IMG/VR virus record: IMGVR_UViG_3300008113_010842
Length of the DNA stretch: 60,918 nucleotides
Source: an uncultured virus (IMG/VR IMGVR_UViG_3300008113_010842)
Taxonomy: Duplodnaviria > Heunggongvirae > Uroviricota > Caudoviricetes
Strand: one strand, 5' to 3'
The translations under genes were made by a program, and so were the position numbers. This document shows, in pieces, positions 6,884 through 55,926 of the stretch (position 1 is its first letter; every line of letters begins with the position of its first letter). The notes under the pieces were generated by a model. That model was not told where the DNA came from. It saw nothing but the letters and a program-made list of their open reading frames with translations, and did not search any database.

Positions 6884-9800
6884 TCATAGATTTAAATTTT
6901 GGTCTTGTGATGAAATTGGTTTACCTATGCTACTGACTACCTCGTTTGGAATGTTTAAAAGTGCATTACTTACATTTACAAAATACTTTATATCATTGAC
7001 TACGGTCTCGTTATGATATTGTGTGTCCCATGTACTTCTAAAAATAAAAAAGTCTTCATATGAATAACCAAATTCATCAATCATTGGATATATGGATTTA
7101 AATTCTTTTTTATCTCTGAGTTTCAATAGCGAACCTTTTCTATTAACTTTTCTAAATTTTCTTTCTTTTATCATTCCAAACTCAGTAAGTGAAGTATCAA
7201 ATTTATAATTTCCTACCTCTTTATATTCAAAGTCTTTCTCAAATAATTGTATGTCGTAAAATAATGGCATATAATAACCACTAAATCTATATAAATCATC
7301 TTTTACAAAATTTTGATTTCCATGAAAATTTTCAAAAACTTTTGGCTCAAATTTGTTTTCTATAATATTGTATGCTAGTGGTACATCATTATACCAATTC
7401 AAATTTAAAAGTGTCTTTATATTACCATCTTTTAATTTTTTAAATGGTTTCAAATCTGGTGGCGATTCTAAAGCTACAAAATCTAAAGACTTGATTTTGA
7501 CCTCAAGTAATTCAGGAACTTCAGCTGTAAGTAAATAAGGAAGACTATTAATATTATTATCAAAGCTATAATTATTTATAGTTCCATCTTTTTCTATTAT
7601 GACATATTTAATATAATCAGTAAAGTCATATTTATTTGATATATCATTTACACATCTTATGAAGTTATATGCTGTAAGCTTTTTGTATAAATCAGTGTAA
7701 ATTGTATCTCTATCACTATTATTGATATTTGGTAATGTATTATCATTTATATTAATATTTACAAATATATTTTTCCATTTTTTATTCACATAAACAACTA
7801 TACCATTTTCTAAAGTTGAATCTGTAGTATTTGAATTTATCAAATAATATTTGTTATTCATTTCAATAATTGAGTTAGCGTAAGAATTATAAACAAAGTT
7901 AGTGTCAGGCTCAAAGCTATATTTTCTAATCCACAAAGGTGATATACCTGGTTCTTTTTCAGCCATTATAGATGTTAAGGTTGGCGCTGAGGCATAAACA
8001 GTGTTTTCATGAACAACTAACTTTTCTCCAGTAAATACATAATTTTGACTTGGATTCCACATTTCTATTGGTTTCCAATTAGGGTTATTAGATTGAGTTG
8101 CTGTCCAGAATTTTCTTAGTTTAAATGAGAATCCTGTAAATGTACCATTGATACTTGTTTTAGGTTTCTTTTCAAACCAAGGTGTTGTATAATCGGGTGA
8201 AAAGTTATTACTTGCAGTTAATGACATATAATATTTTCCTTTAAAAAGGACAATATCACCATAATCATAACCAACAATTAAACTTGCTATACTTGGATTC
8301 CAAAAATCATCACCAGATGAGGTAGCATAATAATAATATTCACCATGATTATAAACAAAATCACCTAAATTATAAGTTGCCATCGGTGACCAGAATATAG
8401 TATTATCATCTGGATTGAAGTAGTCCCAATCATTTATATTATATGGTGCTGATTTAACTTGCTTTAAACTTATCAATTGAAAAGGTTTTTTTGCATTTTC
8501 GATATCAATATCTGAATTCGATTTATATAAAATATCCTCAAAAACAACTATTGAGTCTTTTTTATATTCTTTATCCATTTGCCATTCATCTACTATAGAC
8601 CAATTCATTTCATTGTTATAGGATTCCCAATAGTGGCACCAAGAACCACTACAACCAGTTGGAAATACCAATTTATCAATGTAAGAAGATATACTCCAAT
8701 AGGTTTGAATTACTCTTGTCCAATCTGAATCAATTGGATAATCTTGATTTTCATTTGAATATGCGTATATTAAAGTTGCATTTATACCATCAAATGATTC
8801 ATATATTTCCCATCTTTCTAAAGCTGATGACCAAATACAATATGCTTCAATATCATTATCTTCATCAGTCAATTTATAGTAATATTTACCATTGAATGGA
8901 ATTGTAGATTTGATACCTATTAATGTTTGAAATAATCCTACTGAAACCTGAAATTTAAAATATAAAGGTGAGTTACTCTCATCACCTATAAGACTTATCG
9001 TATCATTTAAGTCCCAATCTGTTAAATTATCTTCATAGATAGAAAAAGTTCCTGTGTTACAACTGGATTCCAATTTAATTTTTGAACCAGGTTTTAGTCT
9101 ATCAATGTAACCTGGGCCTACAAAAACTCTATTTTCTAATTTTACTAAAGAAAAGTTAGTTATATTATTACTCGATGTTCCATTTATTGTAACTGATATT
9201 TGTGTTGGAGTCGCTGTTGGTCCAATTATTTTTACTTCACTAATGTATAAATTAGTAAGTTGTCCATTGAGCTTCAAATACCAACCTAAGTAATTGTATA
9301 TCTCTAATTCAGTTGTTGTGTGTGTCAAAAGACCACCGTTCCACGTTAAAGTCGTTGTTGAATAATCAATTGTCTCTACTTGTTGAGAACTAATAGATAA
9401 GTCAAAACAAGTTGTTTCACTAAATGGTTTATTATTATCTGATAATAATATAGAAAATTTATAATCTTCAAAATTATTTGAATTTTTGAGACTTATAGTA
9501 TCTATTGAACCAGAATCATCTAAACTTATACCATCTACATCATACATTCTGAATTCGATACCTCTGAAAAGAGTCATATTTGGTATTGATGAATCACCAA
9601 TATTAAATTCTGAGTATTTTTTTACATTTTTTTGAATAAGTGATTTTAAAAAATGTTGCTTAGTTTCAAAAAATGATGTAAAATAATCAAAATCATATAC
9701 TTTACTTGAAGTACCAAAGGAATAGGTAGCTGTTCCTAAATATTTATCTATATCAAATCTATATGTGGTGTCAATTACACCTGATTCAACTTTTTCAACA

Positions 9801-17994: not shown

Positions 17995-18597
17995 ATGGAA
18001 TCAAAAGCAATTTTGTTCTCTGAAAAAGAGAAATTATTTAAAGAAAGAACTGGTAAAGACTTCACAACACTTTATCAAAAGTATTACCCAAAATTAATCT
18101 ATTTTACTTCAAGAATTTGTAATGATGCTCAAAAAGCAGAAGACTTATCTACAGACTCATTTATGATAGCATTAGATAAGATTGAAAAGTATGATAGAGA
18201 AAAGTCACAATTTTCAACATGGTTATTCACTATAGCCAAAAACCTCACACTTCAAGATATCAAATTAGATAAAAAGAAAATATCATTGGATATTGAGTTT
18301 GATGAAGAAGGTACAACAATGAAAGATTTCATAACAATTGAAGATGAAACAGACAATCATATTCATGATGTAGTTTCTAAAAAATCTGAGATTATGAAAA
18401 AGTACATGCATACATTAAAAGAGCCATACAAAACGGTCATTCAGATGAGAGAAGTAGATGGTATGGCATACAAAGACATTGCCGATAAGCTTGGTAAAAA
18501 TCTCTCTACAATTAAATCACAAATCAGAAATGGAAGACATATCTTAATTTCACAAACTAAGAAGGAGTTTGATGATATTGATGAAATGTATATGTAA
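17995..18597 (+). CDS. ECF-type sigma-70 factor
   Basis: Region 2 (AEDL..DSF.....I..YD...SQFSTWLFTIAKN) and region 4 HTH (YKDIADKLG..LSTIKSQIRNGR). Confidence 0.9.
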   Translation: MESKAILFSEKEKLFKERTGKDFTTLYQKYYPKLIYFTSRICNDAQKAEDLSTDSFMIALDKIEKYDREKSQFSTWLFTIAKNLTLQDIKLDKKKISLDIEFDEEGTTMKDFITIEDETDNHIHDVVSKKSEIMKKYMHTLKEPYKTVIQMREVDGMAYKDIADKLGKNLSTIKSQIRNGRHILISQTKKEFDDIDEMYM

Positions 18598-26515: not shown

Positions 26516-26944
26516 ATGATAAAAGAACAAATTAACAAAGACTACCTGACAGCATTCAAAGCAAAGAATACTGTTGCTAAAAACTTACTTTCTGTTGTGA
26601 AAGGAGAAATTCAAACTATTGAAAAAAATACAGGAGTTGAAAACCTCTCTGATGAAGAAGTTATAAAAATTTTAACAAAGACATCAAAGTCTTTAAAAGA
26701 AACAATTAAATCTCTATCACCGATTGATGGTAAAGGTGAAGATATAGTTCAAGCTTGTTCAGAGTTAGCAATAATCGAATGTTATTTGCCAAAACAAATG
26801 AGTAAAGAAGAAATTACTCAAAAAGTAACAGAAATTGTGAATTCCGGAGTAACTAATATTGGAGCAATAATGAAAGAATTTGCTCAATTACCAGCTGATA
26901 AAAAAATAGTTTCTGAGGTAGTAAAACAAATTGTAAATAGTTAA
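26516..26944 (+). CDS. GatB/YqeY domain protein
   Basis: I..D...AFKAK....LL..VKGEI...LSDEEVIKIL...E..IIE.YLPKQMS.EEI...IGAIMK. Confidence 0.85.
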   Translation: MIKEQINKDYLTAFKAKNTVAKNLLSVVKGEIQTIEKNTGVENLSDEEVIKILTKTSKSLKETIKSLSPIDGKGEDIVQACSELAIIECYLPKQMSKEEITQKVTEIVNSGVTNIGAIMKEFAQLPADKKIVSEVVKQIVNS

Positions 26945-28043: not shown

Positions 28044-29107
28044 TTTTTTTTATTTTTTTCAAATTGAACCATTTGATTTATAGTGTCTTCTAAACTGATA
28101 GTTATATTCCAGTCAGGATAATTTTTTTTGAATTTTGATAAATCGGAAATATACCAAATATGGTCACCAATTCTATTTTCCTCAGAGATAGTATAGTTGG
28201 ACCAGTTAGTTTCAGCAATTTTATTGATAGTATCAATTGCTTCTAATATAGAAGTTGAGTTTTCTCTACCACCACCCGCATTATAAACTTCACCCTGTTT
28301 AGGATTTTGATGAAAATGCCAAAACATATTAACTAAGTCCCAAGAATGTATATTATCTCTTACTTGTTTTCCTTTGTAACCAAATATTGTATATGGTTTA
28401 TCATTTACTACACATTTAACTAAATACGAAAGAAATCCGTGTAGTTCAGCACCAGCATGATTAGGTCCTGTCAAACAACCACCCCTGAATACACCAACAT
28501 TCATACCAAAGTATTTACCATATTCTTGACACATAATATCAGCTGCGACTTTAGAGGCACCAAACACAGAATGTTTAGTATGGTCAATTGACATTGTTTC
28601 ATCTATTGACATTGGATTTCCTAAATCATCAACACATTCCCATCTTGATTCTCTTTCTTGTAAATATGGGGATTTATTAGGAGTGTCACCATAAACCTTA
28701 TTAGTAGAGGTAAAAATGAATGTAGCATCAGGACAATTTAATCTTGTCAACTCTAGCATATTCATAGTTCCTAAAGCGTTAACACCAAAGTCGGTAATTG
28801 GTTCTTTGACTGCCCAATCATGAGATGGTTGAGCGGCTGTGTGAATCACAATTTCAATTTCATATTTATACTTACCAAATATTTCATTTAATTTATCATA
28901 GTCTCTTATATCAACATTATAGTGTTCATAATCAGATATATTTGATTTTATTGATTCTAATGAATCTTTAGTAGAAGAACCTTCTCCAAAGAAATAAGCT
29001 CTCATATCGTTGTCTATGCCAATAATTTTATAGCCTCTTTCACTGAAGAAACTACAAGCTTGAGAACCGATAAGTCCGGCTGAGCCTGTTATTAAAGCTA
29101 TTTTCAT
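28040..29107 (-). CDS. NAD-dependent nucleotide-sugar epimerase/dehydratase (CDP-paratose 2-epimerase-like)
   Basis: ITGSAGLIGS, HTAAQPSHD, STNKVYGD, GKQVRDNIH. Confidence 0.9.
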   Translation of the reverse strand: MKIALITGSAGLIGSQACSFFSERGYKIIGIDNDMRAYFFGEGSSTKDSLESIKSNISDYEHYNVDIRDYDKLNEIFGKYKYEIEIVIHTAAQPSHDWAVKEPITDFGVNALGTMNMLELTRLNCPDATFIFTSTNKVYGDTPNKSPYLQERESRWECVDDLGNPMSIDETMSIDHTKHSVFGASKVAADIMCQEYGKYFGMNVGVFRGGCLTGPNHAGAELHGFLSYLVKCVVNDKPYTIFGYKGKQVRDNIHSWDLVNMFWHFHQNPKQGEVYNAGGGRENSTSILEAIDTINKIAETNWSNYTISEENRIGDHIWYISDLSKFKKNYPDWNITISLEDTINQMVQFEKNKKN

Positions 29108-29138
29108 ATAAATTATATTCTAATAATTTATTAATGTT

Positions 29139-29238
29139 TTTGGACATTTAAAATATATCCGTATATTTGTAATCATATTAATAAATGATAAAAAATAGAT
29201 ATAAAATTTGGTAGATTTAAAACTTTTTACTAATTTTG
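29139..29238 (+). promoter_or_regulatory. Two tandem Bacteroidota-type promoters upstream of leader 1
   Basis: TTTG(29139)-N19-TATATTTG and TTTG(29207)-N20-TAATTTTG. Confidence 0.75.
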
Positions 29239-29294
29239 TATAAAATAAGAACAAAATAACAAAAGAGAATTAAACAATTTAATATATAATAAAA

Positions 29295-29393
29295 ATGAGA
29301 GCAATTCGTAAACATAGCACATTTAGTAAATCGTCTTGGTTTAGTCACCAAGGTTCGGTACTAAAAGAGTATTGCTCAAATTTAAAGGTATAA
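29295..29393 (+). CDS. Attenuator leader peptide 1, MRAIRKHSTFSKSSWFSHQGSVLKEYCSNLKV
   Basis: R/K/H/S/F/W codon patch matches array 1; contains AGGTTCGG, complementary to the terminator arm. Confidence 0.8.
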   Translation: MRAIRKHSTFSKSSWFSHQGSVLKEYCSNLKV

Positions 29394-29417
29394 AAACTTA
29401 TAAAGACAATATAATTT

Positions 29418-29449
29418 AACCCGAACCTCGAAAGAAGTTCGGGTTTTTT
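29418..29449 (+). terminator. Attenuator terminator 1
   Basis: AACCCGAAC-CTCGAAAGAA-GTTCGGGTT followed by a T-tract. Confidence 0.85.
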
Positions 29450-29473
29450 ATTTATAAAAAATAATTTTTAGAT

Positions 29474-29878
29474 TTGAAACAGATAAGAGATTATAATTAT
29501 AAAATTTCCGAAAGTGGAGAAATAATAAATTTAAGTAATGGTAAAGTTAAAGGTCAATGGATAAACTCAAGTGGTTATTATTGTGTTGAATTAACTATTG
29601 ATAAGTGTAAAAAGAAAAAGTTTTTAACACATAGATTAGTCGCTGAAACATATTTGGAATTACCAATTATTGAAAAAAAAGTACAAATTGATCACATAAA
29701 TAGAAATAGAATAGATAATCACTTTTCAAATTTAAGATGGGTTACATCATCTGAGAATTGTAAAAATAAAAATAGAGTTAAAGTAAAAATGGATGATATT
29801 AATAGCATAATTGAAATGTTCAAAAATGGAGAAACTATTGATAATATTTATAAAATTATAAATTGTTTTTGTCTGTAA
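29474..29878 (+). CDS. NUMOD4/HNH homing endonuclease
   Basis: YKISESGEI, GYYCVEL, HRLVAETY, IDHINRNRIDNHFSNLRWVT..EN; TTG start. Confidence 0.85.
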   Translation: MKQIRDYNYKISESGEIINLSNGKVKGQWINSSGYYCVELTIDKCKKKKFLTHRLVAETYLELPIIEKKVQIDHINRNRIDNHFSNLRWVTSSENCKNKNRVKVKMDDINSIIEMFKNGETIDNIYKIINCFCL

Positions 29879-29921
29879 GAGTGAAGATAGTAGTATAGTT
29901 ACTCGTCATACACCTAAAATT

Positions 29922-29994
29922 GGAACGGTGGCAGATCAGGTGATTGCGCTGGACTGAAAATCCAGAGGAGTGGGTTCGATACCCACCCGTTCCA
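29922..29994 (+). tRNA. tRNA-Phe(GAA)
   Basis: Cloverleaf; anticodon arm CTGGA-CTGAAAA-TCCAG. Confidence 0.9.
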
Positions 29995-30002
29995 CAAATT
30001 TT

Positions 30003-30075
30003 GGACTCGTAGCTTAATCGGGAAAGCACTCCGCTTTTAACGGAGGGAGAGTGGGATCGTAACCCACCGGGTCCA
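30003..30075 (+). tRNA. tRNA-Lys(TTT)
   Basis: CTCCG-CTTTTAA-CGGAG. Confidence 0.9.
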
Positions 30076-30082
30076 CTAATAT

Positions 30083-30155
30083 GATTTCGTAGCTCAGTTG
30101 GTAGAGCACCTCACTTTTAATGAGGGGGTCGTGGGTTCGAACCCCACCGGGATCA
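30083..30155 (+). tRNA. tRNA-Lys(TTT)
   Basis: CCTCA-CTTTTAA-TGAGG. Confidence 0.92.
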
Positions 30156-30157
30156 CT

Positions 30158-30230
30158 GTGAATGTAGCTCAGTTGGTAGAGCGCTTGATTGTGATTCAAG
30201 AGGTAGCGGGATCGTAACCCGTCATTCACC
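30158..30230 (+). tRNA. tRNA-His(GTG)
   Basis: CTTGA-TTGTGAT-TCAAG; C73 discriminator. Confidence 0.92.
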
Positions 30231-30235
30231 AAATT

Positions 30236-30306
30236 ACGTCATACAGACAAGGTGTCGGTCAGGCCTCCAAAACCTCGACGGGTGGGTTCAATTCCTACAT
30301 GGCGTG
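30236..30306 (+). tRNA. tRNA-Trp(CCA), atypical D and anticodon arms
   Basis: Acceptor ACGTCAT/ATGGCGT; loop CTCCAAA; G73. Confidence 0.7.
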
Positions 30307-30314
30307 CTAATAAT

Positions 30315-30442
30315 GGGGATGTAGCTCAGTGGTAGAGAAAACTATCTCTTTTGAAATTTTACCTCGTAAGAGTGTTGATTAAAAGAGTTACTTCGTATAT
30401 TTTGAAATTATAAGGTCGTTGGTTCGAATCCAACCATCCCCA
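30315..30442 (+). tRNA. tRNA-like RNA with ~56-nt insertion (apparent anticodon TGA)
   Basis: Perfect acceptor GGGGATG/CATCCCC, D arm and T arm GTTGG-TTCGAAT-CCAAC; hairpin insert between D and anticodon arms. Confidence 0.6.
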
Positions 30443-30450
30443 CAAAAAAT

Positions 30451-30523
30451 AGTTCCATCGTCTAATGGATGAGGACAGGTCGCTACGAACGATCAAGTGA
30501 AGGTTCGACTCCTTCTGGAACTA
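30451..30523 (+). tRNA. tRNA-Arg(ACG)
   Basis: GGTCG-CTACGAA-CGATC. Confidence 0.88.
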
Positions 30524-30529
30524 CAAATT

Positions 30530-30614
30530 GGAAGAGTAATTAAGCTGGCGCTTGACCTAGTCTTGAAAACTAGTGGTACTTTCGTGGTATGGGGATCGAT
30601 ACCTCACTCTTCCG
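30530..30614 (+). tRNA. tRNA-Ser(TGA)
   Basis: CTAGT-CTTGAAA-ACTAG; long variable arm; G73. Confidence 0.88.
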
Positions 30615-30619
30615 CAAAA

Positions 30620-30705
30620 GGAGAATAAACTAATCTGGTGATTAGGACCGCCTGCTAAGCGAGTTGCACGTGCAATTGTGTGGGGTTCAATTCCTCTGTT
30701 CTCCG
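30620..30705 (+). tRNA. tRNA-Ser(GCT)
   Basis: Loop CTGCTAA; long variable arm; G73. Confidence 0.85.
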
Positions 30706-30711
30706 CTCTGA

Positions 30712-33060
30712 TTAGTAAACTCTTACTCTGACTGTCATAACATGATTGACAGATGTTGGTGGTGTTCCCCAGGCTGGTGTTATCCATCTAATTTGTAAAT
30801 CATCATTCTCAGAAATAGATAATGGTGAACTTAATGTGAATGTATTGTGTGAGTCTGTTAATAGTTGAGCAGTTGATGTTATGACTACTGACGTTGCCTG
30901 TGTAAGGTTGTGCAATTGGTATATTACATTTTCTGAACTTCCGCCACCTGACATTGACCACATAATTGAAACTGATGTTATTTCACCTCTATAGGGACTT
31001 CTAACTCTTCTTGAGACTTGATTTGTGGTTGAAGGTTGTAAAGAAGGAATAAATCCAATATGATAAGTTGTTGAAATTACAGGTGATATACCTGAATGAG
31101 CAAATGATAAATCTCTAATGGATGATGTCCAAGAACCAACTCCATCTGCATTTGATACCATAATGTATCCATTAGATGCACCATTTGTCATTCTAAATCC
31201 AGTAGTTGAAACCGTACCAGAGACTTGTAATTTATATAAAGGGTTAGATGTTCCTATACCAATATAATCAGATGATGCATCTGCAAAAAATAAATTAGCA
31301 TCATTATCACCTTTTATAGTCAAATCTGAATTACCTTGTAACGAGTTGAAAATAACATTTCCTTGTTTTGTAAAAATAGCTGTTCCATTTGCAGGTACAT
31401 CTATGCTTATACCAGTATTTGAGTAAGTTGAACCATAAACATTGACATCTAATCCAATATTTGATAGTGATGTAGTATTGATATTTGCATAAAATCCTCT
31501 ATTTACAGAACCAGTCCCACCATTTTGGTAAAGAGTGTAAAATCCATAATTATTACTAATTGTAGAGTTACTAAGATCAGAAATTGCTGTATATGAATAG
31601 TTTTCTAAAATAGAACCTGTTGGTTGTAAATAAGAGTAGTAGCCTACATTTGCTCCTGTACCATTATCAACCTCAACAAAATGACCTACCGTAGTTGAAC
31701 CAACTCTTTTATTGATTACAACATTTGAAACATTTGCACCCGGTGGTAATATAGAAGAAGATGTAGAACCAATATAAACCGTATCAGATGATGAATCTAC
31801 ATAGAATAAATGAGATGCTGTATTTCCTTGAATTGTAAAATCAAATAATCCTCCATTACCATTGAATAATGCATTTCCTCTTACGTCTAAACTAGCAACA
31901 GGTGAATTTATACCTATACCGACTTTTCCTGCAAAATAGTTATTTCCACCATCTTCTACATAAATACCCCATCTACTTGATGTTGATGTAATATTTCCTA
32001 ATTTACCAGATTGGTCAGACATATAAAACCCATACATCTTATTAGTAGTTCCGTTATGAGTAAAATTACCATCAAAACCATTCATCCAGAATCCTACATA
32101 TTTATCAATAACACCACCTGATGTAATGTTTCTTAAAACAGAAGAAGAACTTTTGACGAATCCATTATAAGTTCCTGTAGAACTTTGAATCTGTATCACA
32201 TTTATATTAGTAGTCAATGATTCATTAGAAGTCAATAATGACAAGTCACCTGTGTATAATACAACACCTGCATTGGCGTTAAATAAAGCGTTTGATGATG
32301 ATGATAAATTCGGATATAATAAAGTTCCATCACCAACTACGACAGTAGATGAAGTTGTTGTAGGTCTATATTCTTTATATATGGACTTTATTGTCGATGT
32401 ATCTGTAGGTGTACTTACACCATCTAAGTAAACAAACTGAGGTGTAGTTGTTGTAGTAAGCGTTGATGTTTTGAAGTTAGTATTACCGAATACTTCTAAT
32501 TTGTAGCTAAGATTTGATGAAGTTCCAATTCCTAAAGACTTGCTTGTATTGTTCCAGAAAATATTAGAATCTTGACCTAATTTATTACCTGTACTTTGAA
32601 AAAATATTTGTCCATCAGAGCCACCAGCAATTGAAGTAGTTCCGATAAGTAATGGTGACCATTGTGTATTTCCGTTATTATCACTTGACGTTAATAAATA
32701 ACCTGTATTTGGACTCGATGATATTGTTAAATTAGATGTTGTAAGACCACCTACTCTTAATTTAGAGTAAGAATTTATATTTATATCACCGATGACAGTG
32801 TGGTCATCATTAGTTTCCACAAGAGCAAAAGTATCGTCTGATTCATCCCAAATGAAAGCTTGTGTAAGACCAGTACCTCTACCAAACATTATACCCTCAT
32901 CTAAAATAGGGGTTCCAGATTGGCTATGTCCTAAAGTTATTATAGTGTCCGATACAACTAAATTTGTTGTGCTGATTGTGGAAGCAGATCCTAATATTGA
33001 AAAAGAACCCGTTACTAATAAATCACCCCATATTTCTGAACTTCCGTATATTATTGGCAT
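30712..33060 (-). CDS. Putative tail fibre/receptor-binding protein
   Basis: S/T/G/N-rich; repeated VGIGT..P...L.V.G fibre motifs. Confidence 0.7.
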   Translation of the reverse strand: MPIIYGSSEIWGDLLVTGSFSILGSASTISTTNLVVSDTIITLGHSQSGTPILDEGIMFGRGTGLTQAFIWDESDDTFALVETNDDHTVIGDININSYSKLRVGGLTTSNLTISSSPNTGYLLTSSDNNGNTQWSPLLIGTTSIAGGSDGQIFFQSTGNKLGQDSNIFWNNTSKSLGIGTSSNLSYKLEVFGNTNFKTSTLTTTTTPQFVYLDGVSTPTDTSTIKSIYKEYRPTTTSSTVVVGDGTLLYPNLSSSSNALFNANAGVVLYTGDLSLLTSNESLTTNINVIQIQSSTGTYNGFVKSSSSVLRNITSGGVIDKYVGFWMNGFDGNFTHNGTTNKMYGFYMSDQSGKLGNITSTSSRWGIYVEDGGNNYFAGKVGIGINSPVASLDVRGNALFNGNGGLFDFTIQGNTASHLFYVDSSSDTVYIGSTSSSILPPGANVSNVVINKRVGSTTVGHFVEVDNGTGANVGYYSYLQPTGSILENYSYTAISDLSNSTISNNYGFYTLYQNGGTGSVNRGFYANINTTSLSNIGLDVNVYGSTYSNTGISIDVPANGTAIFTKQGNVIFNSLQGNSDLTIKGDNDANLFFADASSDYIGIGTSNPLYKLQVSGTVSTTGFRMTNGASNGYIMVSNADGVGSWTSSIRDLSFAHSGISPVISTTYHIGFIPSLQPSTTNQVSRRVRSPYRGEITSVSIMWSMSGGGSSENVIYQLHNLTQATSVVITSTAQLLTDSHNTFTLSSPLSISENDDLQIRWITPAWGTPPTSVNHVMTVRVRVY

Positions 33061-40198: not shown

Positions 40199-40270
40199 TG
40201 CGGGGTGGAGTAGTGGAAGCTCGCTAGGCTCATAACCTAGAGGTCGCAGGTTCGAGTCCTGCCCCCGCTA
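40199..40270 (+). tRNA. Initiator-type tRNA-Met(CAT)
   Basis: 1:72 mismatch, fMet-like GCGGGGTGGAG 5' end, CTAGG-CTCATAA-CCTAG. Confidence 0.88.
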
Positions 40271-40289
40271 CAAAAAAATAGATAAAATA

Positions 40290-40341: not shown

Positions 40342-40410
40342 ATGAATACAATTTCAACATATTATTATAAGGAGAGCAAAGTCTCTGTCAGACGAGTAAG
40401 TATGTCGTAA
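40342..40410 (+). CDS. Attenuator leader peptide 2, MNTISTYYYKESKVSVRRVSMS
   Basis: TAT-TAT-TAT-AAG-GAG patch matches the Tyr/Glu array; TGTCAGAC complements the terminator arm. Confidence 0.8.
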   Translation: MNTISTYYYKESKVSVRRVSMS

Positions 40411-40433
40411 TTGAAATATATTATACAAACTTT

Positions 40434-40467
40434 AAACCCAGTCTGACAATTCAGACTGGGTTTTTTT
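40434..40467 (+). terminator. Attenuator terminator 2
   Basis: AAACCCAGTCTGA-CAAT-TCAGACTGGGTTT plus T-tract. Confidence 0.9.
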
Positions 40468-40470
40468 ATT

Positions 40471-40538
40471 GGGTTGAGTTATGGTGACGGCCGGATCTGT
40501 AAAATCCTAGCAGTTGAGTTCGAGTCTCAGGCAACCCA
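40471..40538 (+). tRNA. Atypical short tRNA-Tyr(GTA)-like
   Basis: Acceptor GGGTTG/CAACCC, GGAT-CTGTAAA-ATCC, T arm; reduced D arm, no long variable arm. Confidence 0.6.
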
Positions 40539-40543
40539 CAAAT

Positions 40544-40615
40544 GTTCCGTTCGTCTAGCGGTAGGACATCTCCCTTTCAAGGAGAAGGTCACGGGTTCGA
40601 ATCCCGTACGGAATA
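40544..40615 (+). tRNA. tRNA-Glu(TTC)
   Basis: TCTCC-CTTTCAA-GGAGA. Confidence 0.9.
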
Positions 40616-40631
40616 CAAGAATTAAAAAAGA

Positions 40632-40663
40632 TTTGGTAGATTAAAAATATTTACTTATCTTTG
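40632..40663 (+). promoter_or_regulatory. Internal Bacteroidota-type promoter within array 2
   Basis: TTTG-GTAGA..(N20)-TATCTTTG. Confidence 0.8.
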
Positions 40664-40680
40664 TAAAACAAAAAACAAAT

Positions 40681-40752
40681 GGTCCCATCGTCTAATGGTT
40701 AGGACGTTAGGTTTTCATCCTAGAAATCGGAGTTCGATCCTCCGTGGGACTA
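40681..40752 (+). tRNA. tRNA-Glu(TTC)
   Basis: TTAGG-TTTTCAT-CCTAG. Confidence 0.9.
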
Positions 40753-40847
40753 CAAAAGTCGGAGTAATTAACCGACTCTAACAAGAAGATGGTTCATATA
40801 GCTTAAAGAGATTTGCTAGCACTAATTTCTGGAAGTCTTCTTGATTA

Positions 40848-40923
40848 ACTACTTATGGTGTAAATTGGATTGCACGCGGGTCATTCGGCCCGAGGGTTGT
40901 AGGTTCGAGTCCTATGGGTAGTT
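40848..40923 (+). tRNA. tRNA-like RNA of undetermined identity (6-nt anticodon loop CATTCG)
   Basis: Acceptor ACTACTT/GGGTAGT, D arm, CGGGT-CATTCG-GCCCG, T arm GTAGG-TTCGAGT-CCTAT. Confidence 0.6.
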
Positions 40924-40930
40924 CAAATAT

Positions 40931-41012
40931 TGGAAGGTGGGTGAGTGGCTAAAACCGGCAGACTGTAAATCTGCTCTCTTTGAGTACGGGGGTTCGAATC
41001 CCTCCCTTCCAA
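40931..41012 (+). tRNA. tRNA-Tyr(GTA)
   Basis: GCAGA-CTGTAAA-TCTGC; class II variable arm. Confidence 0.92.
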
Positions 41013-41040
41013 CTTTTTTTATTTTCTTCATAAAACAAAG

Positions 41041-42145: not shown

Positions 42146-42229
42146 ATGAAAAATTTAACTAACATATCACAAGCAGTTATAGCGACAGGCGCGGGGCGTT
42201 TGGTCGAGAGACTGAGTTATGTTATGTAA
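42146..42229 (+). CDS. Attenuator leader peptide 3, MKNLTNISQAVIATGAGRLVERLSYVM
   Basis: GCA-GTT-ATA-GCG-ACA-GGC-GCG-GGG patch matches the Ile(TAT)/Gly/Ala array; GAGACTGAGTTA complements the terminator arm. Confidence 0.8.
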   Translation: MKNLTNISQAVIATGAGRLVERLSYVM

Positions 42230-42253
42230 GATTTTGACTTTACATATTTATTT

Positions 42254-42283
42254 AACCCAGTCTCAAAAAGATTGGGTTTTTTT
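42254..42283 (+). terminator. Attenuator terminator 3
   Basis: AACCCAGTCT-CAAAA-AGATTGGGTT plus T-tract. Confidence 0.88.
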
Positions 42284-42287
42284 ATTT

Positions 42288-42361
42288 TGGTGAGTAGCTT
42301 AGACGGTAGAAGCACGTGTCTTATACACACGAGATAGTGGGTTCGATACCCACCTCACCAA
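42288..42361 (+). tRNA. tRNA-Ile(TAT)
   Basis: CGTGT-CTTATAC-ACACG. Confidence 0.85.
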
Positions 42362-42366
42362 CAAAA

Positions 42367-42438
42367 GCGGGTATCGTATAATGGTTATTACACCGGCCTT
42401 CCAAGTCGGTGATGTCAGTTCGATTCTGGTTACCCGCA
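42367..42438 (+). tRNA. tRNA-Gly(TCC)
   Basis: CCGGC-CTTCCAA-GTCGG. Confidence 0.88.
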
Positions 42439-42442
42439 CTAC

Positions 42443-42518
42443 GGGCTAGCATGTTCCAAGGCTTCGGCGACTTACCCTTGCAAGGTAGGTGTGGTGGGTT
42501 CGATTCCCATCTGGTCCA
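42443..42518 (+). tRNA. tRNA-Ala(TGC)
   Basis: TTACC-CTTGCAA-GGTAG; G3:U70 pair. Confidence 0.8.
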
Positions 42519-42528
42519 CAAAAAATAA

Positions 42529-42603
42529 GCGAGAGTAGCTCAGTGGTAGAATGTCTGCTTGCCAAGCAGAAGGTCGCGGGTTCGAATCCCGTCTCTCGCT
42601 CCA
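42529..42603 (+). tRNA. tRNA-Gly(GCC)
   Basis: TCTGC-TTGCCAA-GCAGA; U73; encoded CCA. Confidence 0.93.
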
Positions 42604-42607
42604 ATAT

Positions 42608-42644
42608 GCCGGTTGACCCACGTTGAATCGCGGTGCCGGCTCCA
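42608..42644 (+). ncRNA. tRNA minihelix-like RNA ending UCCA
   Basis: GCCGGT/GCCGGC stem, inner T-arm-like hairpin, 3' TCCA. Confidence 0.45.
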
Positions 42645-42717
42645 GGGGGATTAGCTCATTTGGCGGAGCGTTTGAATGGCATTCAAAAGGTGACGAGTTC
42701 GATCCTCGTATCCTCCA
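42645..42717 (+). tRNA. tRNA-Ala(GGC)
   Basis: TTTGA-ATGGCAT-TCAAA; G3:U70 pair. Confidence 0.9.
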
Positions 42718-42737
42718 CAAAAATTAATATATACTAA

Positions 42738-46799: not shown

Positions 46800-46913
46800 A
46801 TGAGAACAAATACGACAAATATGATGAACCTGACACTCAATGTGGTGAATATTACGTTATGTAATATTAGACCTTCTGAGGGTTCCTTCCTATTTAGAAA
46901 ATTTGTCTCGTGA
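46800..46913 (+). CDS. Attenuator leader peptide 4, MRTNTTNMMNLTLNVVNITLCNIRPSEGSFLFRKFVS
   Basis: Codons 2-24 encode only R/T/N/M/L/V/I/C, the amino acids of array 4; TCTGAGGGTTC is the exact complement of the terminator arm. Confidence 0.88.
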   Translation: MRTNTTNMMNLTLNVVNITLCNIRPSEGSFLFRKFVS

Positions 46914-46944
46914 ATGTGACGTATTTATAACTAAATATAAAAAG

Positions 46945-46974
46945 AACCCTCAGATAAAAATCTGAGGGTTTTTT
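46945..46974 (+). terminator. Attenuator terminator 4
   Basis: AACCCTCAGAT-AAAA-ATCTGAGGGTT plus T-tract. Confidence 0.9.
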
Positions 46975-46989
46975 GTTTTAATAAAATTT

Positions 46990-47062
46990 GGCTCCTTCGT
47001 TCAACGGGACAGGACATCGCTCTTCTAAAGCGAGGATACAGGTTCGAATCCTGTAGGAGCTA
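46990..47062 (+). tRNA. tRNA-Arg(TCT)
   Basis: TCGCT-CTTCTAA-AGCGA. Confidence 0.9.
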
Positions 47063-47069
47063 CTAAAAT

Positions 47070-47158
47070 GGGCTTGTAGCTGATTTGGTTTTAGCTGGTG
47101 ACTGTTAATCACTGTATGAAAAATTGAAATAAAGTAGGTTCGAATCCTGCCTGGCCCG
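47070..47158 (+). tRNA. tRNA-Asn(GTT) with ~20-nt variable region
   Basis: GGTGA-CTGTTAA-TCACT; G73. Confidence 0.75.
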
Positions 47159-47169
47159 CAAAAATAAAT

Positions 47170-47240
47170 GTCCTGATGGCGTAATGGGAGCGTGTTAGTG
47201 TTACATACTAACGGTACTGGTTCGAGTCCAGTTCAGGATA
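47170..47240 (+). tRNA. tRNA-Val(TAC)
   Basis: TTAGT-GTTACAT-ACTAA. Confidence 0.82.
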
Positions 47241-47247
47241 CTAAAAT

Positions 47248-47320
47248 TGTCAGTTAGCTCATTTGGTAGAGCACTTGTCTGATACACAAGAGGTGGTGGG
47301 ATCGTAACCCGCACTGACAA
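47248..47320 (+). tRNA. tRNA-Ile(GAT)
   Basis: CTTGT-CTGATAC-ACAAG. Confidence 0.9.
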
Positions 47321-47326
47321 CAAATT

Positions 47327-47399
47327 GACACCGTGTCTGAATGGCTTAGGTCCCAGTCTGCAAAACTGTGGTATGTCGGTTCGAACCCGACCGGTGTCT
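47327..47399 (+). tRNA. tRNA-Cys(GCA)
   Basis: CAGT-CTGCAAA-ACTG; U73. Confidence 0.88.
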
Positions 47400-47405
47400 C
47401 AATAA

Positions 47406-47477
47406 GCTTCTTAAGCATTAATGGTGATGCGCTAGTCTTGTAAACTAGAGAAATCGGATCGTTACCGGTAAGAAGCT
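47406..47477 (+). tRNA. tRNA-Thr(TGT)
   Basis: CTAGT-CTTGTAA-ACTAG. Confidence 0.88.
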
Positions 47478-47480
47478 CAA

Positions 47481-47597
47481 TAACAGATGGTGATTGAAAG
47501 TGTTACTTCGTTTAATGGATAAACAATTGACTTCTAATCAATACTTCGGTGGTTCGATTCCACCAGTAAAAACCTCTTTCAGGACTTTCCTCTGTTA
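47481..47597 (+). tRNA. tRNA-Arg(TCT)-like core (47501-47572) inside an extended hairpin
   Basis: ATTGA-CTTCTAA-TCAAT, T arm GGTGG-TTCGATT-CCACC; flanks TAACAGA/TCTGTTA and TGAAAG/CTTTCA pair. Confidence 0.55.
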
Positions 47598-47602
47598 TAT
47601 CT

Positions 47603-47693
47603 GCCTCAGTGGCGAAATTTGGTTGAAACGCGCTAGACTTAGGATCTAGTACCCAAGTGGCAAACGTTGTCGGTTCGAGTCCGACCTGAGGTA
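47603..47693 (+). tRNA. tRNA-Leu(TAG)
   Basis: CTAGA-CTTAGGA-TCTAG; long variable arm. Confidence 0.9.
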
Positions 47694-47700
47694 CAAAATT

Positions 47701-47791
47701 GCTCCAGTGGCGAAACTGGTTGAAACGCATGGGACTTAAAATCCCATACCCTATGAGGTGAACGTTGTCGGTTCGAATCCGACCTGGAGTA
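47701..47791 (+). tRNA. tRNA-Leu(TAA)
   Basis: TGGGA-CTTAAAA-TCCCA; long variable arm. Confidence 0.9.
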
Positions 47792-47797
47792 CAAAAT

Positions 47798-47867
47798 GCC
47801 GCGGCTTAGTGGAAAAGGACATTGGCTCATATCCTGTGTTAAGTGAGTTCGAACCTCATACGCGGTA
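47798..47867 (+). tRNA. Atypical tRNA with CAT anticodon (Met or Ile2)
   Basis: Acceptor GCCGCG/CGCGGT, loop CTCATAT, reduced D arm, elongated anticodon stem. Confidence 0.6.
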
Positions 47868-47875
47868 CAATATAA

Positions 47876-47948
47876 GCCCCTGTGACGTAATTGGTAGTCG
47901 TATTCGTTTCAAATGCGGAGTGTCCGAGTTCGAATCTCGGTAGGGGTA
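47876..47948 (+). tRNA. tRNA with CAA (Leu) anticodon but short variable loop
   Basis: TTCGT-TTCAAAT-GCGGA; 4-nt variable loop. Confidence 0.65.
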
Positions 47949-47981
47949 CAAACCAGATATATAAATAAAAAAAAATATATT

Positions 47982-54978: not shown

Positions 54979-55074
54979 ATGAACAACGTAATTGTAAATA
55001 TCGCAGTAGTTAACCCACAACCGCAGGATCAGGATCGTGTGAGAGTGGCTAACTATGTATTTACAATAAGTTAA
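54979..55074 (+). CDS. Attenuator leader peptide 5, MNNVIVNIAVVNPQPQDQDRVRVANYVFTIS
   Basis: CCA-CAA-CCG-CAG-GAT-CAG-GAT patch matches the Gln/Asp/Pro array; TGGCTAACT pairs with the terminator arm. Confidence 0.85.
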   Translation: MNNVIVNIAVVNPQPQDQDRVRVANYVFTIS

Positions 55075-55097
55075 TGTTTAATTAAAAACGAATTTGT

Positions 55098-55132
55098 AAA
55101 ACCCGGTTAGTCAAAATCTAATCGGGTTTTTT
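55098..55132 (+). terminator. Attenuator terminator 5
   Basis: AAAACCCGGTTAG-TCAAAAT-CTAATCGGGTTTT plus T-tract. Confidence 0.88.
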
Positions 55133-55142
55133 GTTATTATAT

Positions 55143-55215
55143 TGTCGGGTCGTCTAGTTTGGCAGGACGCAAGATTTTGGCTCTTGAAACACAGGTTCGA
55201 TGCCTGTCTCGACAT
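55143..55215 (+). tRNA. tRNA-Gln(TTG)
   Basis: CAAGA-TTTTGGC-TCTTG; U1:A72. Confidence 0.88.
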
Positions 55216-55222
55216 CAAATAC

Positions 55223-55295
55223 GGATGTGAGGTCAAACGGTTAAGATGTCTGCCTGTCACGCAGTTCGGAGCGGGTTCAACTCCCGTCACGTCCG
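55223..55295 (+). tRNA. tRNA-Asp(GTC)
   Basis: CTGC-CTGTCAC-GCAG; G73. Confidence 0.88.
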
Positions 55296-55304
55296 CTAAA
55301 ATTT

Positions 55305-55387
55305 CGGGATGTAGCCTAGAGGTTACGCAAGTTAGAGGCACTTGGTTTGGGACCAAGACGACGCAGGTTCGATTCCTGTCATCCCGA
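55305..55387 (+). tRNA. tRNA-Pro(TGG) with enlarged D loop
   Basis: CTTGG-TTTGGGA-CCAAG; C1:G72. Confidence 0.85.
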
Positions 55388-55401
55388 CAAAAATAAACGA
55401 T

Positions 55402-55926
55402 ATGATAGACGGAACATTATACATTGACAATTTTATAGATAACGATAGTTTTCTATTTGATACACTAAGAGATAATTCTGATTGGGATAGAAGAATGGCT
55501 TCTAGATTAACAACATCATTTGGTGTTTCTTATAACTATTCTGATATATCTTATCCAGATGTTATCATACCAAATTATTTAGATGATTTGATAGTTAGAA
55601 TAAATGATGTTGTTGGTTTCACACCAAATAACTGCTTAGTGAATTACTATTTAGATGGTAGATCTAAGATGGGTTATCACTCAGATAGAACTGATATACT
55701 TTTACCAGGAACTGGAGTTGTTATTATATCTTTAGGTTCAACTAGAACATTGAGATTTAGAAATATAAATGATAGAAGTATAGTTGATTTTAGTTTAAGA
55801 AGTGGTTCACTTTTTTATATGACATCTGATGTTCAGGATTTATGGGTTCATTCTATTCCTGTTTCTGATGTTGATGGTAGTAGAATGAGTTTAACTTTCA
55901 GAAATCTCAATCCATCTACCATCTGA
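55402..55926 (+). CDS. AlkB-family 2OG-Fe(II) dioxygenase (start re-assigned to MIDGTL)
   Basis: NNCLVNYY.DG...MGYHSD, ISLGSTR.L.FR, L.SGSLFYM, WVHSIP, RMSLTFR. Confidence 0.92.
   Translation: MIDGTLYIDNFIDNDSFLFDTLRDNSDWDRRMASRLTTSFGVSYNYSDISYPDVIIPNYLDDLIVRINDVVGFTPNNCLVNYYLDGRSKMGYHSDRTDILLPGTGVVIISLGSTRTLRFRNINDRSIVDFSLRSGSLFYMTSDVQDLWVHSIPVSDVDGSRMSLTFRNLNPSTI

Follow-up and report, generated by a model that had tools for sequence, protein, structure and literature searches.

We found that a 32-codon leader ORF ahead of an eight-tRNA array in a large phage probably overlaps a ribosome-controlled transcription attenuator, such that the tRNAs would be made mainly when the codons of a short patch in the leader are decoded slowly. 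By every testable feature, this would be a known mechanism, the leader-peptide attenuator, in a seemingly undescribed setting, phage tRNA arrays, in which the product itself reads the sensor. A first-pass annotation of the region had proposed such an attenuator, and the proposal is supported by a conserved start, a kept frame, the codon match, mutually exclusive helices with covariation, the position of the predicted switch and the lack of a promoter motif behind the terminator.

The window (60,918 nucleotides, the whole stretch of DNA that was analysed) makes up the second half of a contig of 122,918 bases with 29% GC. Judging from its PHROG and protein matches (tail-fibre, virion, primase, PhoH, ligase, sigma factor), the contig is a fragment of a large phage. 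The leader and array studied here (unit 1) also occur in relatives: IMG/VR contigs that reach 476 kb and, from GenBank, two megaphage records (635 and 642 kb). The available text of PMC7162821 assigns its five genomes of >634 kb to the Mahaphage clade and predicts that they are phages of Bacteroidetes. Habitat was taken from DNA runs covering half or more of the stretch, with small-share runs left out, and their labels are freshwater, lake and "fungus metagenome." Because contigs from two of the DNA runs (X1 and X3) bridge 29355 to 29956 with 0 differences, the assembly across this interval is supported. Four RNA runs, available as contigs only, gave short pieces that are mostly tRNAs of other organisms and were left out of the evidence; one 183-base piece (29370–29552) crosses the terminator at a depth of 3 and may be DNA. 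In the GenBank phage set, cultured phages matched only in single tRNAs or the HNH gene among the best 30 of 493 matches. Exact patterns for the unit-1 leader and for a Ser/Arg leader had 0 matches in 185,579 prokaryote genomes, a search that diverged host versions could escape. The phage encodes a sigma factor at 17995 to 18597, and a translation-related gene near the arrays (26516–26944) matches a GatB/Yqey-like "tRNA amidotransferase" PHROG.

The control region of unit 1 is laid out as follows.

29207–29238, plus strand: predicted Bacteroidota-type promoter motif (TTTG ... TAHHTTTG); the same motif precedes all five leaders
29261–29288, plus strand: second upstream motif (AAAAGAG ... AATATATA), a candidate phage promoter by inferred function
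29295–29393, plus strand: leader ORF, 32 codons; ATG at 29295, A at −3, no Shine–Dalgarno sequence seen
29299–29328, plus strand: segment 1 of the predicted protector (1:2) hairpin; 29299–29305 pairs with 29371–29377, and 29322–29328 with 29359–29365
29307–29342, plus strand: likely sensing patch, codons 5 to 16 (RKHSTFSKSSWF); 11/12 array amino acids
29351–29377, plus strand: segment 2, with the antiterminator 5′ strand (29351–29358) and its extension (29370–29374), from pairing and covariation
29407–29428, plus strand: segment 3, CAATA (29407–29411) and the terminator 5′ arm, pairing with segment 2
29420–29453, plus strand: intrinsic terminator hairpin (29420–29443) and U-tract, 26 bases past the leader stop codon; z −4.5

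The Bacteroidota promoter consensus was taken from the available text of PMC6847099. A AATATATA-like motif occurs at most 60 bases upstream of 28 of the contig's 105 long ORFs and lies 12 to 13 bases from the ATG in 14 of those; sites include window positions 29281, 46787 and 54968. Between the unit-1 terminator and the end of the array, neither the host nor the phage promoter motif was found. A scan for sigma-70 promoters was uninformative, with 9 sites against 8.7 expected.

Codons 5 to 18 of the leader read R K H S T F S K S S W F S H, as quoted in the first-pass annotation, and 13 of these 14 codons specify amino acids of the array (F, K, H, W, R or S), whereas the other two frames of the same DNA give 2 and 2. 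Among 200,000 random 31-codon leaders drawn with the contig's codon usage, only two reached 13 or more in any 14-codon window, a count that allows for the choice of window, and 0 of 34,832 14-codon windows in the contig's long ORFs reached 13. Since the antiterminator is predicted to fail at S17 and H18 (0.60 and 0.30), codons 5 to 16 are the likely sensing stretch, and codons 17 and 18 would probably come too late to sense; the match of 11/12 in this geometry-defined window has a binomial p of ∼1e-5. The claim that both Ser boxes are used, matching Ser(GCT) and Ser(TGA), stands in part: the Ser codons are present and S8 is informative, but S11 and S13 are partly RNA-structural. These two are weak evidence for Ser sensing because they lie in RNA segment 1 and are kept in relatives that carry their Ser tRNAs in a different unit, and because in LR756502, where S13 has given way to Leu, the accompanying RNA change is compensated. 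In run X11, one contig (depth 5) has an extra Ser codon in the patch through an in-frame three-base insertion at 29330.

The annotated array (Phe, Lys, Lys, His, Trp, Arg(ACG), Ser, Ser) is present. Phe(GAA), both copies of Lys(TTT), His(GTG) and Arg(ACG) were detected at the default ARAGORN threshold; Trp(CCA), Ser(TGA) and Ser(GCT) appeared only at a lowered threshold together with sub-threshold Rfam matches. The genes behind the terminator, which include an HNH gene and a tRNA-like RNA absent from the first-pass annotation, are as follows.

29474–29878, plus strand: HNH endonuclease gene, 134 codons, TTG start (PHROG 59, E 2e-25), between terminator and tRNA-Phe
29922–29995, plus strand: tRNA-Phe(GAA)
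30003–30076, plus strand: tRNA-Lys(TTT)
30083–30156, plus strand: tRNA-Lys(TTT), second copy
30158–30230, plus strand: tRNA-His(GTG)
30236–30307, plus strand: tRNA-Trp(CCA), atypical; lowered threshold, conserved in relatives
30315–30442, plus strand: enlarged tRNA-like RNA, 128 bases, between Trp and Arg, with ∼55 extra bases in a long hairpin
30451–30524, plus strand: tRNA-Arg(ACG)
30530–30615, plus strand: tRNA-Ser(TGA); lowered threshold, sub-threshold Rfam match
30620–30706, plus strand: tRNA-Ser(GCT); lowered threshold, sub-threshold Rfam match

The HNH gene appears to be a recent insertion: in a tblastn search of loci L001 to L114, the only hit outside the window was in L034, whose sequence here equals that of the window and which we did not treat as a separate case; L001, L013 and L026 lack the gene. 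Behind the terminator, it would be expressed solely on read-through. A contig skipping 29403 to 29919 occurs in all four DNA runs, as would be expected if these samples also contain relatives that lack the HNH gene. The enlarged tRNA-like RNA, at the end of the Lys/Trp block, is conserved at 128 to 135 bases in the window, in L001 (3504–3638) and in 19 more loci; its acceptor, D and T arms are kept, with double changes at 7 of 39 pairs among 21 distinct aligned variants, and an inserted long hairpin replaces the normal anticodon arm. It could be a decoy for tRNA-cutting enzymes. An ARAGORN call of Ser(TGA) at 30372 to 30441 was rejected as part of this RNA.

The complementarities on which the first-pass annotation built its antiterminator hold: AGGTTCGG (29351–29358) is the exact reverse complement, over 8 bases, of 29421 to 29428, and TATTG (29370–29374) pairs with CAATA (29407–29411) in the predicted structure, which has a free energy of −18.4 kcal/mol (z −3.4; 0/200 shuffles as good). 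Across 70 distinct homologs, the 1:2 helices are paired in 90% of cells, with 15 double changes against 7.4 in shuffles, and the 2:3 helices in 98.6%. Both values lie above all 500 shuffles and all slid controls, with part of the invariance owed to the search pattern; because FSKS..WF and GTTCGGT were part of the pattern used to pick the unit-1 homologs, these sites are invariant by construction. At the pair flanking the antiterminator (n = 70), 28 homologs have A-U, 26 have G-C and 6 have a wobble or U-A pair; in 28, the C does not match the 3′ arm of the terminator and therefore serves the antiterminator. In LR756502, which was found without the pattern, segments 1, 2, 3 and 4 have changed together with all pairings kept, at the cost of Ser13. 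These joint changes indicate that the structure is under selection and that S13 is partly structural.

The geometry of the terminators is compatible with control by a translating ribosome. The distance from stop codon to terminator is 22 to 47 bases across 67 distinct leaders, and in units 1 to 5 the terminators lie 26, 26, 26, 33 and 27 bases after the stop, clear of a ribosome there. The five leader terminators, all before tRNAs, are five of the eight plus-strand terminators in the contig. Among seven control terminators not before tRNAs, a free-standing short ORF at the right distance was seen at one and the end of a long gene at two; four had neither. We modelled the ribosome as covering 7 bases beyond the A-site codon. 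In this model the terminator 5′ arm was held (0.74–0.79) through F16 and freed at S17 to Q19, and a stall anywhere on codons 2 to 16 was predicted to hold the antiterminator. The last holding codon lay two to three codons after Trp in the homologs (n = 70), and holding exceeded 0.5 on all patch codons in 65 of them. With no ribosome on the leader, the antiterminator was disfavoured (predicted off, protector dominant) in 43/70 homologs, an effect that is weak in the window (z −1.5). Equilibrium folding favoured the terminator at every ribosome position (0.97–0.99), and the switch must therefore be kinetic. As a test of switching, equilibrium folding has no power, for the terminator also always wins for Escherichia coli thrL, trpL and hisL. 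No Rfam cis-regulatory family (known leader or riboswitch) reached its gathering score in the window; the T-box gave no match at gathering score in the window, nor at E up to 10 in 29100 to 30800, and Thr_leader stayed below its family threshold (17.7 bits against 55, E 2.8).

The homologs bear the marks expected of a translated leader. The pattern FSKS..WF plus the antiterminator core retrieved 12 viral and 82 metagenome loci, which with earlier loci gave 105 matches, 57 of them distinct. An ATG stands nine codons upstream of FSKS in 105/105 matches, at a position outside the search pattern. The spacing within the patch, for which 3 to 9 bases were allowed, is 7 in 55 and 4 in 2 distinct leaders, and the frame is kept in 57/57. 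After the patch the spacing is 8, 10 or 11 bases and falls into two frames (38 and 19 leaders), so that the second half of the peptide is not conserved though its RNA is. Also outside the pattern are His7 (53/57), Lys8 (49/57; AAA 33, AAG 16) and His9 (48/57), whose codons lie in a predicted unpaired loop. In 22 distinct Ser/Arg leaders found by geometry alone, the Ser runs vary in length and use mixed codons, and 22/23 Arg codons are CGY compared with ∼9% CGN in the contig.

Each of the five tRNA arrays of the contig has a promoter motif, a leader ORF, an antiterminator strand of 7 to 11 bases and a terminator, and by its predicted genes a near-complete phage tRNA set is divided among five such modules. 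The sister units are as follows.

40342–41013, plus strand: unit 2, Tyr/Glu array; leader 40342–40410 (YYYKE), terminator 40437–40460, promoter motif at 40656 inside the array
42146–42718, plus strand: unit 3, Ile(TAT)/Gly/Ala array; leader 42146–42229 (AVIATGAG, Ile as ATA), terminator 42256–42276
46800–47949, plus strand: unit 4, Arg(TCT)/Asn/Val/Ile(GAT)/Cys/Thr/Leu/Met array; leader 46800–46913 (LNVVNITLCNIR), terminator 46947–46968
54979–55388, plus strand: unit 5, Gln/Asp/Pro array; leader 54979–55074 (PQPQDQD), terminator 55102–55126

The third tRNA of unit 5, called Leu(GAG) by ARAGORN at 55305, reads as Pro(TGG), as in L001. We compared leaders and arrays over the 12 codons whose end lies two codons ahead of the antiterminator strand. 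This rule was chosen once the leaders were known, and the arrays were curated by hand, with Pro for the ARAGORN Leu in unit 5; own-array matches in units 1 to 5 were 11, 4, 6, 12 and 7. The true pairing of the five leaders with the five arrays ranked first of 120 at both the amino-acid and the codon level. Unit 2 is weak, its 4/12 being tied with two other arrays. Isoacceptors follow as well: ATA is used before Ile(TAT), ATT before Ile(GAT), CGT before Arg(ACG) and AGA before Arg(TCT). A tRNA-Met(CAT) at 40199 to 40271 and the second tRNA-Glu (40656–40753) look ungated, as promoter-like motifs of their own lie directly ahead of them with no leader or terminator. A tRNA with a 6-base loop lies at 40848 to 40924, and an AlkB-like gene (55402–55926; PHROG E 3e-24) directly 3′ of array 5.

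Among relatives, the leader follows the array. For 65 distinct leaders in six families, the mean own-array match was 0.61, 0.67, 0.40, 0.50, 0.92 and 0.62, in each case the highest of its row; two unassigned leaders were left out, and the unit-1 rows are sequence-selected and include truncated arrays. The unit-5 pattern found only 2 loci. We then compared unit-1 leaders whose Ser/Arg tRNAs are fused to the array with those whose Ser/Arg tRNAs are separate; of the 57 distinct leaders, 23 with no Ser/Arg tRNA in the fetched DNA were dropped, which left 7 fused and 25 separate. Extra Ser at codons 6 to 9 occurred in 6/7 fused and 0/25 separate leaders (Fisher 8e-6, kinship ignored), in three different Ser-bearing motifs among the fused leaders. 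On a tree built without codons 5 to 9, the fused state needed 6 changes, at least 4 of them forced by well-supported branches, although these are not clean independent events since short units may recombine. The closest relative of the window in this set (L046, 94%) belongs to the separate class and has neither R5 nor S8. Contrary to this trend, one fused leader (L026) lacks the extra Ser, and leaders with separate Ser arrays still hold 2 to 5 Ser. Two further candidates for the fused class were dropped, L068 because it has its own Ser/Arg leader and L086 because it has no true Ser tRNA; Arg at codon 5 proved a weak marker of fusion (7/7 fused, 13/25 separate). Arrays are regrouped differently in L001 and L015, and the leaders follow: L001 (974–1650) joins Tyr, Ile(TAT), Gly and Ala behind a leader with I-A-C-Y-Y-E-G-G, and L015 divides the set between two arrays whose leaders (at 7777 and 12006) complement each other. 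In L004, L014 and L016, a single 47-codon leader with all 20 amino acids precedes a large array of nearly all tRNAs (minus strand, with the leader at 7564 when the locus is reversed).

From the sequence anatomy, its conservation, the covariation and the leader–array matching, we infer a cycle of leader translation, termination and switching, with a physiological trigger, that would run as follows. Host RNA polymerase would start at the Bacteroidota-type promoter and a ribosome would start on the leader. A ribosome lingering on codons 5 to 16 would block the protector, leaving segment 2 to pair with the terminator 5′ arm, and polymerase would read through the HNH gene into the array. Once past codon 17, the ribosome would cover segment 2 and the terminator would form, whereas an untranslated leader would tend to fold as protector plus terminator, the off state. 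Slow decoding of K, H, F and W, and here also of S and R, would thus open the gate, and the new tRNAs would restore speed and close it. As the array tRNAs read the sensor codons, this would amount to a self-limiting feedback loop that tops up a scarce group of tRNAs.

Shortage of tRNA would be a likelier trigger and purpose than amino-acid starvation, though starvation should trip the switch, because more tRNA would not cure a missing amino acid. The physiological trigger may be loss of tRNA during infection, for example to host tRNA-cutting defences; depletion of host tRNAs in infection is described in the available text of PMC10264068. That defence-driven loss is the main signal we put forward tentatively, at somewhat under an even chance. 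In a wider and likewise tentative reading, which we would also place a little short of even, large Bacteroidota phages carry a modular immune-evasion homeostat: a hungry-codon sensor for each block would detect nuclease destruction of the matching host tRNAs, turn on replacements and be shut off by them, and the sensors would be rewritten when blocks fuse or split. If so, the leader codons record which tRNAs hosts attack.

The switch could also be real and yet serve as a general gauge of translation speed or amino-acid supply, with the codon match merely tuning it and tRNA loss not the signal. In the model, a stall at any of codons 2 to 16 keeps the antiterminator in place; Ser codons are also retained in leaders that gate no Ser tRNA, and uncharged tRNA from starvation stalls classical leaders (available text of PMC3082878). 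Such a gauge, however, would have no need of five different leaders each matching its own array, or of leader changes that follow array fusion and fission, and extra tRNA presumably cannot supply a missing amino acid; we consider it unlikely.

The fixed ATG and the frame kept in the patch, the synonymous changes in the unpaired loop and the variable-length Ser runs in mixed codons make it very improbable that the ORF goes untranslated and arises only as a side effect of a structured 5′ RNA that responds to a protein or an RNA (T-box-like or an antitermination factor). Such an RNA would account for the base pairing of much of the ORF in the protector fold and for the change of S13 to Leu when pairing demands it; no Rfam cis-regulatory family, however, matched at gathering score in the window. 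A constitutive or leaky terminator, with the tRNAs made by constant read-through or from a different promoter and the leader encoding a small trans-acting peptide, seems a most doubtful account. Equilibrium folds do give the terminator and the unit 2 array has an internal promoter motif, but the second half of the peptide is in different frames among relatives, covariation is specific to the antiterminator, no promoter motif lies behind the unit-1 terminator, and in several relatives the first tRNA lies within 12 to 25 bases of the terminator. A ribosome-controlled attenuator responding to tRNA supply remains our preferred reading.

Why phages carry tRNAs has been debated for decades, between codon compensation and the replacement of depleted host tRNAs, according to the available text of PMC10264068, which also covers an anticodon-mutation model of phage tRNAs. 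On-demand control keyed to the codons of each block fits replacement, not constant compensation. It would also mean that transcription and translation are closely coupled on phage DNA in Bacteroidota, and would provide compact multi-amino-acid sensors of tRNA supply. A T5-like tRNA-Tyr rescues infection against the retron Eco7, a rescue that depends on a strong promoter (available text of PMC11555353). Replacing lost host tRNAs is the likely purpose that the present arrays share with phage tRNAs set against tRNA-cutting defences. PARIS is reportedly another such defence answered by phage tRNAs. Our literature search, which covered mainly openly available papers, returned no published leader attenuator before phage tRNA arrays. 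Judging by their abstracts, PMC5331693, PMC9023263 and PMC8229198 deal with other subjects. By word search, "attenuat" and "leader" are absent from PMC7162821, PMC12619734, PMC11555353, PMC10264068 and PMC13015707, and in the available text of PMC3082878 and PMC13602947 the attenuation examples are pheL and trpL only.

The closest published counterparts in the presumed host phylum are the leader attenuators of Flavobacterium amino-acid operons (ilvE and hisG leaders), predicted from transcriptomics in the available text of PMC9723704. They resemble the phage units in their phylum-type promoter, A-rich start context and short leader with terminator; they gate biosynthetic operons, and none stands before tRNA genes among three supplement rows of that paper. 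Leader attenuators of Bacteroidota hosts are the probable source of the phage design.

Some tRNA operons of Firmicutes are controlled by the T-box, and TrcR represses the trn operon of Anabaena; there, too, tRNAs are induced under translational stress, but through direct tRNA–RNA binding or a repressor protein and with no translated leader, unlike the phage units. The pheST (pheM) attenuator controls the cell's phenylalanyl-tRNA synthetase and senses one amino acid, and its product feeds the charged-tRNA pool that it senses, like the phage loop. The ilvGMEDA leader is a multivalent attenuator. To our knowledge, all described leader-peptide attenuators gate amino-acid biosynthesis or synthetase genes. 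The genes gated here are tRNAs and an inserted HNH gene, and unit 1 is therefore a variant rather than a member of a named operon family.

The amino-acid operon attenuators thrL, trpL, hisL and pheL likewise have a short ORF with sensor codons, 1:2/2:3/3:4 helices and an intrinsic terminator, a mechanism described in the available text of PMC3082878. Under the same script, E. coli thrL, trpL and hisL gave the same computed switch and equilibrium profiles as unit 1, and the stop-to-stem distance of thrL is 24 bases compared with 26. Unlike them, the phage leaders gate tRNAs and not enzymes, are phage-encoded and form five parallel units; each holds up to six or more amino acids, and the product itself reads the sensor codons. 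With these units, trp-type attenuation, familiar for enzymes in cells, would reach tRNA genes and viruses and include a closed feedback loop.
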